A stretch of 64,000 nt of DNA from Shigella phage sb3 (PQ666541), one strand, 5' to 3'; shown: positions 42,696 to 43,582, counted from the first letter of the stretch. Numbers and translations: made by a program. The notes: generated by a model from the sequence alone, not told the origin.

Positions 42696-42983
42696 TTACC
42701 ATTTATGATAATACATATTTACGATGCATTCAAGACCCAAAGGATTCTTGAAAATATCATATTCAAGAGGACCTTTTTCTGTTTCAATAAAGAAATCAAA
42801 ATTTACTGTATTAAATTTACGGTCTTCCTTTACTAATTTAACTTGAGAAGATGAACGGTCAATGTAAACCTTTTCAACTTCAAAACATGTTAAAATGCCA
42901 TAATCATCAATCAAGGCTTTAGCTGCTTCTTGATCATATTTATATCCATTTTCAATGGATGATACTTTCGCATAAAGAATCAT
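42696..42983 (-). CDS. Hypothetical protein
   Basis: 95-aa ORF between the tRNA cluster and the ipI-type locus. Confidence 0.4.
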   Translation of the reverse strand: MILYAKVSSIENGYKYDQEAAKALIDDYGILTCFEVEKVYIDRSSSQVKLVKEDRKFNTVNFDFFIETEKGPLEYDIFKNPLGLECIVNMYYHKW

Positions 42984-42985
42984 TA

Positions 42986-43396
42986 TTAACCTTTATCAAC
43001 AATAGTATGTGTATGGGCATTTACGATTTGCCACCAATCGAAACTATCGGAACCATAATCTGGTTTATTTTCATTGTCTTCAATAATTTGGCGTAATTCA
43101 TCTTCTGTTTCAGCATACGCAATCAAATCATCATATCCACCACAAGGATAGTAATTATCGCCTGCGAACAAAAGAAAATTTACTTTAGATGGGTCTACAT
43201 AATAATGCTCTTTAGGATATTTAGTTCCTCTCCAATCAGTTACTTCAACATAACGATAAGAAAATCCATTTTTACTTTCAATCCAACTCCACGCTTCAAA
43301 AGGAGTATTAAAAACTTTATCAGGTATTAAATTACCTTCAAAATGAGAAGGATTTGCATAATCCCCAGCATAAACATAGTATTCGTTAATACTCAT
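42986..43396 (-). CDS. Hypothetical protein
   Basis: 136-aa ORF, aromatic-rich. Confidence 0.4.
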   Translation of the reverse strand: MSINEYYVYAGDYANPSHFEGNLIPDKVFNTPFEAWSWIESKNGFSYRYVEVTDWRGTKYPKEHYYVDPSKVNFLLFAGDNYYPCGGYDDLIAYAETEDELRQIIEDNENKPDYGSDSFDWWQIVNAHTHTIVDKG

Positions 43397-43582
43397 CTAT
43401 TCACCTTTAGAAATTTTATCCATAACAATAGCGATTAAACCAATTAAAAATGCTACTACAAGTGAAAACACATTTTCTGCTGTAGTTAATAATCCACATA
43501 TAAATCCAACAAACATTGAAAAACTAAAAGCAGAAGCAGAAATTGCAATAGCAACATTTCGAATTAATTCACAACGTTTCAT
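43397..43582 (-). CDS. Small membrane protein
   Basis: 61 aa, two hydrophobic helices. Confidence 0.4.
   Translation of the reverse strand: MKRCELIRNVAIAISASAFSFSMFVGFICGLLTTAENVFSLVVAFLIGLIAIVMDKISKGE

Follow-up and report, generated by a model that had tools for sequence, protein, structure and literature searches.

The DNA analysed here, which we call the window, is a stretch of 64,000 nucleotides from Shigella phage sb3 (PQ666541), a member of Tequatrovirus. On its minus strand, three small ORFs follow one another between an early promoter (43611-43640) and the gene for tRNA-Gln (42525-42598), in the order trna.4, trna.3 and trna.2, and fill the space between these two elements. The first, trna.4 (43397-43582), encodes a peptide of 61 aa with two predicted membrane segments; trna.3 (42986-43396) encodes a protein of 136 aa, and trna.2 (42696-42983) an acidic, soluble protein of 95 aa assigned to PF27001. 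A first-pass annotation had described three small ORFs at these positions and of these sizes, and all of them are present. The packing is tight: the stop codon of trna.4 abuts the start codon of trna.3 (TAG directly followed by ATG), a gap of two bases separates trna.3 from trna.2 (TAA-TA-ATG), and tRNA-Gln starts 97 nt past trna.2, at 42598. The interval, 1061 nt long, is 97-98% identical to that of Salmonella phage SG1, vB_EcoM_G50 and others, with matches in 848 phage records.

Judged by amino acid identity, the three ORFs are orthologs of T4 trna.4, trna.3 and trna.2 (NP_049748, NP_049747 and NP_049746, the last with UniProt entry P13324), the encoded proteins having the lengths of their T4 counterparts and being 100%, 92.6% and 96.8% identical to them, respectively. 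The same ORFs carry these names in the annotated relatives Shfl2, T6 and T4, their order is shared by T4, T6, Shfl2, NBG2, PYps35T and the Mosigvirus HX01, and in T4 they lie, ordered as in the window, between ipI and tRNA-Gln. All three show full-length matches to PHROG families labelled 'unknown function', namely phrog_1692 for trna.4 (E 6e-35), phrog_1411 for trna.3 (E 1.2e-50) and phrog_2023 for trna.2 (E 3.1e-48, positions 1-95 of 95). Precomputed Pfam assignments give PF26894 (Phage_T4_Y07C) for trna.3 and PF27001 for homologs of trna.2, and none was seen for trna.4. In a database of 50,697 phage records the genes were found in 779 (trna.4), 760 (trna.3) and 799 (trna.2) records, and Trna.4 is at least 99% identical in 428 of its 779. 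With such a distribution the description of these ORFs as orphans in the first-pass annotation has to be abandoned. The same annotation had named homology to well-characterised T4 ORFs as an outcome that would speak against its reading; the homology is clear, but the T4 genes in question are themselves uncharacterised. The trio is thus already known as a set of T4 genes of unnamed function with Pfam and PHROG families, and the mildly new part concerns trna.3, which behaves as a cassette, and PF26894, which is broadly distributed; both are described below. No paralogs of the trio were found within the window, and a literature search under the phage accession or locus tags returned nothing relevant.

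The trio-bearing records belong to Tequatrovirus and Mosigvirus and to T4-like phages whose hosts are Klebsiella, Kosakonia, Salmonella and further enterobacteria. The dNMP kinase gp1, a flanking core gene, occurs in 1567 records, including T4-like phages of Aeromonas, Acinetobacter and Vibrio, and the trio is present in roughly half of the records with this kinase. Because the trio is limited to enterobacterial T4-like phages while the gp1 kinase extends to broader hosts, its sequence distribution is that of a lineage-restricted accessory set rather than of orphans. The earlier view of these ORFs as accessory genes beside a hyperplastic locus was right.

Downstream of the trio lie ten tRNA genes (41767-42598, minus strand), for Gln, Leu, Gly, Pro, Ser, Thr, Met(cat), Tyr, Asn and Arg, on which ARAGORN and Rfam agree; the same array is found in NBG2 and PYps35T. 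The homing endonuclease gene segB had been expected between tRNA-Gln and the ip locus, an expectation contradicted by both reference genomes, since segB is part of the tRNA array in both, with tRNA-Ile and tRNA-Arg as its neighbours in T4 and tRNA-Tyr and tRNA-Arg in T6. It is never located between tRNA-Gln and ipI in these phages, and therefore its absence from the interval is normal and carries no functional meaning. That the interval encodes no homing endonuclease was itself borne out, as no GIY-YIG or HNH match was obtained in any ORF of at least 30 aa within 42599-43652 (Pfam, E<=1). A tblastn search of the whole window with T4 SegB gave a best E of 0.07, antisense to a 660-aa ORF at 50548-52530. 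Brok-Volchanskaya et al. reported that segB is missing from T2L, RB1 and RB3, that SegB preferentially cuts in T2L tRNA-Asn at a site with the core GGTTCRANTCC, and that the T2L segment replaced by SegB homing encodes tRNA-Met, Tyr, Asn and Arg (PMC2330249). The core motif is found in the window as GGTTCGAATCC within tRNA-Asn (41861-41871), and the arrangement Thr-Met-Tyr-Asn-Arg is, by its gene content, that of the segB-less T2L type, a recipient-type array. It is because the window carries this array that segB is absent from its whole length.

Could one of the ORFs have decayed from a GIY-YIG homing endonuclease of the seg type? A degenerate seg gene, which had also been named beforehand as an outcome adverse to the first reading, was not detected by tblastn, hhalign or Pfam. 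Residues 4-46 of T4 SegB do give a weak tblastn alignment with the start of trna.2 (34.9% identity, E = 7.7), and hhalign of SegB against the Trna.2 profile aligns the same 28 columns, but it does so with a probability of only 4.3%, and GIY-YIG and HNH Pfam models are without a match at E<=1 in any ORF of the interval. In T4 and T6, furthermore, trna.2, trna.3 and trna.4 are present together with a segB gene that is intact and placed elsewhere, so the trio is not a leftover of segB decay, and we regard such an origin as barely conceivable.

The promoter that drives trna.4-trna.3-trna.2 (43611-43640, minus strand) is of the T4 early type and consists of GTTTAC, N14 and GTGATACTAT. The site, GTTTACATAGGGTTTTAGTTGTGATACTAT, shows 0 mismatches to the extended T4 early-promoter pattern GTTTAC-N14-GTGNTANTAT, and this exact match confirms the claim that an early promoter at 43611 precedes the ORFs. 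With up to one mismatch allowed, chance would give 0.02 occurrences of the extended pattern in the window; 11 are found, each of them on the minus strand. A sigma-70 scan reads the same place (43611-43639) as TTTACA-17-TACTAT with a TG upstream, the generic scan alone being not significant (9 sites against 9.4 expected). The T4 intergenic region upstream of trna.4 is 96% identical to 43583-43658 of the window, and the annotation of phage SA20RB lists this element as a T4 early promoter. Overlapping the spacer and the -10 box, RNA folding places a stem-loop with a 7-bp stem, ATAGGGT/ACCCTAT (43603-43634, minus strand; z = -2.05). A sister cassette is located at 43941-43970, before the Ip5-type gene, with the same TTTACA-17-TACTAT promoter (43941-43969) and a stem of 13 bp (z = -5.2); the two cassettes are 89% identical and differ by one mismatch over about 33 nt ending in GTTTACAT. 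The PeSL consensus of the T4/PST pair is TTTACW-N17-TAYWAT (PMC4122927), and in its sequence and predicted fold the element at trna.4 is a PeSL-type promoter/stem-loop cassette. No sign was seen in this locus that recombination at the PeSL repeats moved the trio.

At the other end of the trio, the spacer between trna.2 and tRNA-Gln folds into an 11-bp hairpin (42607-42632, minus strand) that is followed by no clean U-tract and represents a candidate weak terminator or processing site; the homologous element in SA20RB is annotated as a rho-independent terminator. In a consensus terminator scan of the window this hairpin was not called, and no strong terminator was found between trna.2 and tRNA-Gln. 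The first strong intrinsic terminator is located at 41427-41450 (minus strand), after the tRNAs and the homologs of rnaD and rnaC, where a 10-bp stem with 7 GC pairs is followed by a T-run, and by these features it probably marks the end of the transcription unit. In T4, according to work of Broida and Abelson from 1985, the promoter that serves the tRNA genes reportedly lies about 1 kb upstream of them. In view of this and of the lack of a strong terminator before 41450, we lean towards read-through from the trio into the tRNA array, in which case the tRNA precursor transcript would begin with the ORFs. The hairpin at 42607-42632 could end some transcripts before tRNA-Gln.

The analysis of substitutions indicates that the three frames are maintained as proteins. 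Comparison of the three genes with four other phages gave twelve dN/dS ratios, which range from 0 to 0.33, a pattern of codon substitution under which all three genes are under purifying selection; together with the full-length PHROG matches, these values lead us to treat the genes as real. This evidence bears on the idea that the ORFs are frames without function that belong to the tRNA transcript's 5' leader and persist only through conservation at the DNA or RNA level, an idea with which the dispensability of the genes in transposon screens and the lack of a known domain in a local Pfam scan would agree. Against Mosigvirus HX01, however, dN/dS is 0.12 for trna.4 and 0.17 and 0.22 for the others at a dS of 0.7 to >3, with reading frames and lengths preserved; very distant phages share PF26894 as a conserved protein domain; and Trna.2 has been detected as a protein by mass spectrometry in T4 infection (PMC13275509). 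We consider non-functional frames highly improbable on these grounds.

Dispensability itself is documented by the HIDEN-SEQ transposon screen of T4, in which insertions hit 23/25 TA sites of trna.2, 39/40 of trna.3 and 16/17 of trna.4 (10.1101/2025.11.20.689424, supplementary file 7), and all three genes were classified as Non-essential on E. coli K-12, as were their Bas37 orthologs bas37_0257 to 0259 (10.1101/2025.11.20.689424). In the one conditional comparison of that study considered here, that in which dmd insertions become tolerated, the trio was unchanged (adjusted p = 1), and the three genes are absent from the conditional hits named in the main text (10.1101/2025.11.20.689424).

Hydropathy analysis of Trna.4 locates hydrophobic segments at approximately residues 10-32 and 37-54, with charged ends, in agreement with the 2-TM peptide proposed in the first-pass annotation, and the protein is accordingly predicted to be a membrane peptide with two hydrophobic segments. 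Trna.2 and Trna.3 have calculated pI values of 4.93 and 4.39. No ORF separates trna.2 from the first tRNA gene in the window, T4, T6, NBG2 and PYps35T, and HX01 has one additional ORF between the two; the predicted structure of Trna.2 has a pLDDT of 54.9 and is unreliable. Neville et al. (2026) found T4 Trna.2 by LC-MS/MS after T4 infection, and in their pull-down of DRT1 from T4-infected cells Inh and Trna.2 were the sole phage proteins significantly enriched for wild-type over RT-knockout (PMC13275509). The enrichment of Trna.2 over the RT-knockout could be indirect. The N-termini of the trio read MKRCELIR, MSINEYYV and MILYAKVS, and none of the three carries the capsid-targeting leader MKT(F/Y)xEF...E that precedes the protease site in proteins of the IPI/Ip5 type; the neighbouring Ip5-type gene does carry such a leader, MKTFKEFATKTTITE.

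The gene trna.3 behaves differently from its neighbours. Among Tequatrovirus phages, amino acid identity to the window is 97-100% for 57B, Trna.4 and Trna.2, and residues 1-70 of Trna.3 are 97% identical to T4 and T6; against NBG2 the N-terminal half of Trna.3 shows 29.6% identity and the C-terminal half 81.8%, and against PYps35T the values are 45.7% and 77.3%. At the nucleotide level, trna.3 is 40-65% identical to NBG2 over 43420-43181 and 73-83% over 43180-43001, and 53-77% and 68-82% identical to PYps35T over the same segments, while the flanking genes are 95-100% identical in both phages, the switch in identity falling within one 60-nt bin of each border of the ORF. A whole-protein match at 80% identity or more to the Trna.3 of the window occurs in 126/760 records, and hence the T4-type allele present here is the less common one. 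From these alignments, trna.3 is an allelic cassette, of which several deeply diverged N-half alleles are exchanged between otherwise near-identical genomes. The dS of trna.3 is 1.1-1.6, that is, saturated, against 0.02-0.10 for its neighbours; the alleles are therefore old and were swapped by recombination rather than being the outcome of fast evolution in place, and the same comparison of synonymous sites points to allele replacement and not to positive selection in place. The swapping of trna.3 alleles mirrors that of the adjacent ip locus.

Trna.3 falls into two halves when 14 homologs are aligned. The N-terminal half (aa 1-70; 43187-43396, minus strand) is a hypervariable allelic module, and the C-terminal half (aa 71-136 plus stop; 42986-43186, minus strand) corresponds to the PF26894 'Phage_T4_Y07C' domain and is conserved (NFLLFAGDNYYPxGGYxDL...FDWWQIVNAHTH). 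The family motif F-x-G...YYP-x-GG-x-x-D...W-W/Y-Q/H-I-V is present in the window protein as NFLLFAGDNYYPCGGYDD...FDWWQIV. A profile search of 1.84 billion cluster representatives returned 370 hits at E<=1e-3, mostly proteins of 60-90 aa aligning with positions 71-134, and an HMM built from 117 stand-alone members matches Trna.3 at aa 73-136 (E 1.6e-30), where all six invariant columns of the stand-alone domain (F, G, GG, D, W) are kept. A search of 90%-identity clusters gave 1282 proteins, with PF26894 on all 120 among the matches listed, and structure matches in BFVD, to proteins that are all uncharacterized, extend its range to Staphylococcus (Kayvirus), Bacillus and Synechococcus phages. 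By these profile matches Trna.3 is a two-part protein, in which a conserved PF26894 half, widespread as a stand-alone phage protein, is joined to a variable N half. Two other ideas about its architecture were discarded. An internal duplication, suggested by the resemblance of YYVYAGDY to FLLFAGDNYY, is unsupported, as hhalign aligned the two halves with each other at a probability of 0.1% and the stand-alone-domain HMM matched the N half with i-E 0.03-0.1 and scores near zero; and P0125, which looked like an N domain occurring by itself, is a truncated piece of Trna.3.

The surroundings of the stand-alone domain allow a second explanation to be weighed, namely that the trio serves the adjacent tRNA genes through precursor processing, modification, or protection and repair against host anticodon nucleases. 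In Tequatrovirus the trio directly precedes the tRNA locus, with no strong terminator from trna.2 to tRNA-Gln, and this placement is retained in Mosigvirus HX01, where the array is reduced to two tRNAs. On seven metagenomic contigs, stand-alone PF26894 proteins lie within runs of small genes near replication or nucleotide-metabolism genes. RNA-repair genes are close by in 2/7 of these loci: in one, an AAA_33 kinase and a T4 Rnl1-type ligase are located about 1-2.5 kb upstream, and another is flanked immediately by an AlkB-like oxygenase and RtcB. In the other 5/7, however, the domain sits among unrelated small early or replication genes, and a tRNA lies within 6 kb in 1/7 only; a link of PF26894 to RNA repair or tRNA was accordingly set aside as the main explanation, two contexts being suggestive and the rest not, in a sample that is too small. 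Nor do the proteins themselves favour such a service: none of the three matches an RNA-binding or RNA-modifying family, the acidity of Trna.3 and Trna.2 (pI 4.4 and 4.9) is unfavourable for RNA binding, and the deep allelic variation of the Trna.3 N half is ill-suited to a conserved tRNA substrate. We thus consider a role in tRNA metabolism improbable.

Taken as a whole, the interval is very probably best explained as a conserved T-even early trio behind a PeSL-type early promoter, directly upstream of the tRNA array. As to function, we give about even odds to the proposal that the three proteins are non-catalytic host-interaction or counter-defence factors made in the first minutes of infection. 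A host-takeover or anti-defence role had been put forward in the first-pass annotation, and a host-interaction or counter-defence role is plausible on evidence that is circumstantial only, namely the signals for early expression, the dispensability under laboratory conditions and the recovery of Trna.2 in the DRT1 pull-down. This class is the most likely one because the genes are early-expressed, dispensable, lineage-restricted and small, encode two acidic proteins and one membrane hairpin, include one that is allele-swapped, and lie beside Acb1 and the ip locus. The neighbour 57B is Acb1 (PF23474, E 2.6e-60), and the neighbouring ip locus encodes inhibitors of GmrSD and McrBC (10.1101/2025.11.20.689424). 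In the proposed mechanism Trna.4 would be a peptide forming a hairpin in the inner membrane, the small acidic proteins Trna.3 and Trna.2 would bind host or defence proteins, and the variable N half of Trna.3 would represent the specificity-determining or recognition-evading part, with PF26894 as the constant part. We know of no defence system that the trio counters. The proteins have no sequence or fold homology to characterised inhibitors (Acb1, IPI, Arn, Dmd, Ocr and others) and no demonstrated counter-defence phenotype; they gave no meaningful match in PADLOC, NCBIfam or an older Pfam copy predating PF26894 and PF27001, and nothing below E = 1 in sequence-profile searches of PDB. The probability left over by the host-interaction and tRNA roles falls to some other accessory role.

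A narrower version of the host-interaction proposal is doubtful. It would make Trna.3 a modular counter-defence or host-specificity factor, with PF26894 as a constant effector or scaffold and a swappable N half setting which host or defence protein is bound or evaded, and Trna.2 a direct ligand, either trigger or inhibitor, of the DRT1-type reverse-transcriptase defence. If this were true, PF26894, with more than 1200 clusters in T4-like, Staphylococcus, Bacillus and cyanobacterial phages, would be a large unrecognised family of phage-host interface proteins. The trio is three among many early T4 genes without function, placed here between Acb1 and the internal proteins blocking type IV restriction, two loci with a proven role in counter-defence, and owing to the DRT1 pull-down Trna.2 is the most testable of its members.

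Compared with known systems, the closest counterpart is the trna.4/trna.3/trna.2 trio of T4 itself, which has the same order, the same lengths (61/136/95 aa), the same site between the ip locus and tRNA-Gln, and an early promoter; the window differs by few substitutions only, with most of the Trna.3 changes in one stretch of its C-terminal half (ELRQIIEDNENKPDYGSDSF in the window against KLRDIIKENENKPDYGSNRF in T4). In phages that bear SegB, the endonuclease gene is located inside the tRNA array, some 0.5-0.8 kb downstream of 42696-43582, whereas the window has no segB. The PeSL cassettes described by Arbiol et al. (2010, PMC2839356) and Comeau et al. (2014, PMC4122927) present the same TTTACA-N17-TACTAT promoter overlapped by a stem-loop and, as in those, the cassette is repeated here, upstream of the Ip5-type gene and of trna.4, and flanks variable genes; the stem at trna.4 is however short (7 bp, z = -2), and two separate units vary here, the ip gene and the coding sequence of trna.3. 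Finally, although the trio has neither the MKT(F/Y)xEF leader of the internal proteins nor a 2H-phosphoesterase domain, it shares with the ip locus (ipI/Ip5/Ip6) and 57B/Acb1, whose counter-defence function is proven, the early promoters, the small non-essential genes and the allelic replacement between close relatives.

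The gene next to trna.4 (43653-43910, minus strand, 85 aa, phrog_3499), which the first-pass annotation had termed 'ipI-type', is of the Ip5 type. In T6 the gene annotated 'Ip5, replaces ipI' encodes a protein with 100% identity to that of the window. Identity with T4 IPI is just 27%, the likeness being limited to the MKTFKEF...TITE leader. A second gene of 234 nt, annotated as Ip6 in T6, lies between the Ip5-type gene and trna.4 in T6, PYps35T and Bas37, and inhibition of McrBC has been shown for the Bas37 copy, bas37_0260; this second gene is missing from the window. The 57B gene (43983-44438, minus strand) matches PF23474 with an E-value of 2.6e-60, and its product, 99.3% identical to T4 57B, is the anti-CBASS 2H phosphodiesterase Acb1, the PHROGs label still being 'RNA ligase'.

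The promoter/stem-loop (PeSL) cassettes before the Ip5-type gene and before trna.4 (43911-43995 and 43583-43665, minus strand) have an almost identical upstream stretch of ~33 nt. This stretch takes in the final codons and the stop of each preceding gene, and thus the recombination substrate extends into coding sequence; the Ip5-type protein and 57B have the C-terminal end DLK* in common. Between 11998 and 43970 the window holds 11 matches to the extended T4 early-promoter pattern, always on the minus strand, against 0.02 expected by chance, and its early transcription units can be mapped readily from these sites.

PF26894, the C-terminal domain of trna.3, also occurs as a stand-alone phage protein, and RNA-repair genes lie near its gene at two loci, L005 5001-5198 and the P0215 contig, both metagenomic. 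At one of them the gene is flanked directly by RtcB and an AlkB-like 2OG-Fe(II) oxygenase gene; at the other, genes for an AAA_33 kinase and for an RNA ligase of the T4 Rnl1 type precede it by 1-2.5 kb. Since such neighbours appear in just two of seven PF26894 contexts, this closeness may be a coincidence.

Two stable RNAs of T4 have homologs directly past tRNA-Arg, both on the minus strand: rnaC (41501-41639, 97.8% identity to T4) and rnaD (41646-41762, 88%). No Rfam family reached the gathering score over either homolog, and a tRNA-like GGTTCGAATCC is present within that of rnaC (41513-41523). Downstream of this tRNA/rnaC block are two paralogous minus-strand ORFs of phrog_2280 (unknown function), of 157 aa (40899-41372) and 187 aa (40210-40773). 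The N-termini of the two ORFs, MKSYAQFLNEA and MKTYAEFLTEA, are similar to the leader that targets internal head proteins to the capsid; the two products may also be packaged. P0059, a 94-aa protein from the search of cluster representatives, is a chimera, following NBG2-type Trna.3, an allele with a diverged N-terminal half, through ...DIIKEN and then continuing as ...PHAHSLEYVEDIQKIIKDRIWSAKQIK, the C-terminus of the 157-aa ORF. It looks like the product of a natural deletion, or of a misassembly, with loss of trna.2, the entire tRNA array and rnaC/rnaD.

The tRNA array itself (41767-42598, minus strand) is of the T2L type without segB, the T4 homing endonuclease gene. The SegB core motif GGTTCGAATCC is located inside the tRNA-Asn gene (41861-41871), and the phage would be expected to act as a SegB homing recipient in mixed infection with T4. 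Whereas T4 has the order Thr-Ile-segB-Arg, the window presents Thr-Met(cat)-Tyr-Asn-Arg at this place, as in the T2L type.
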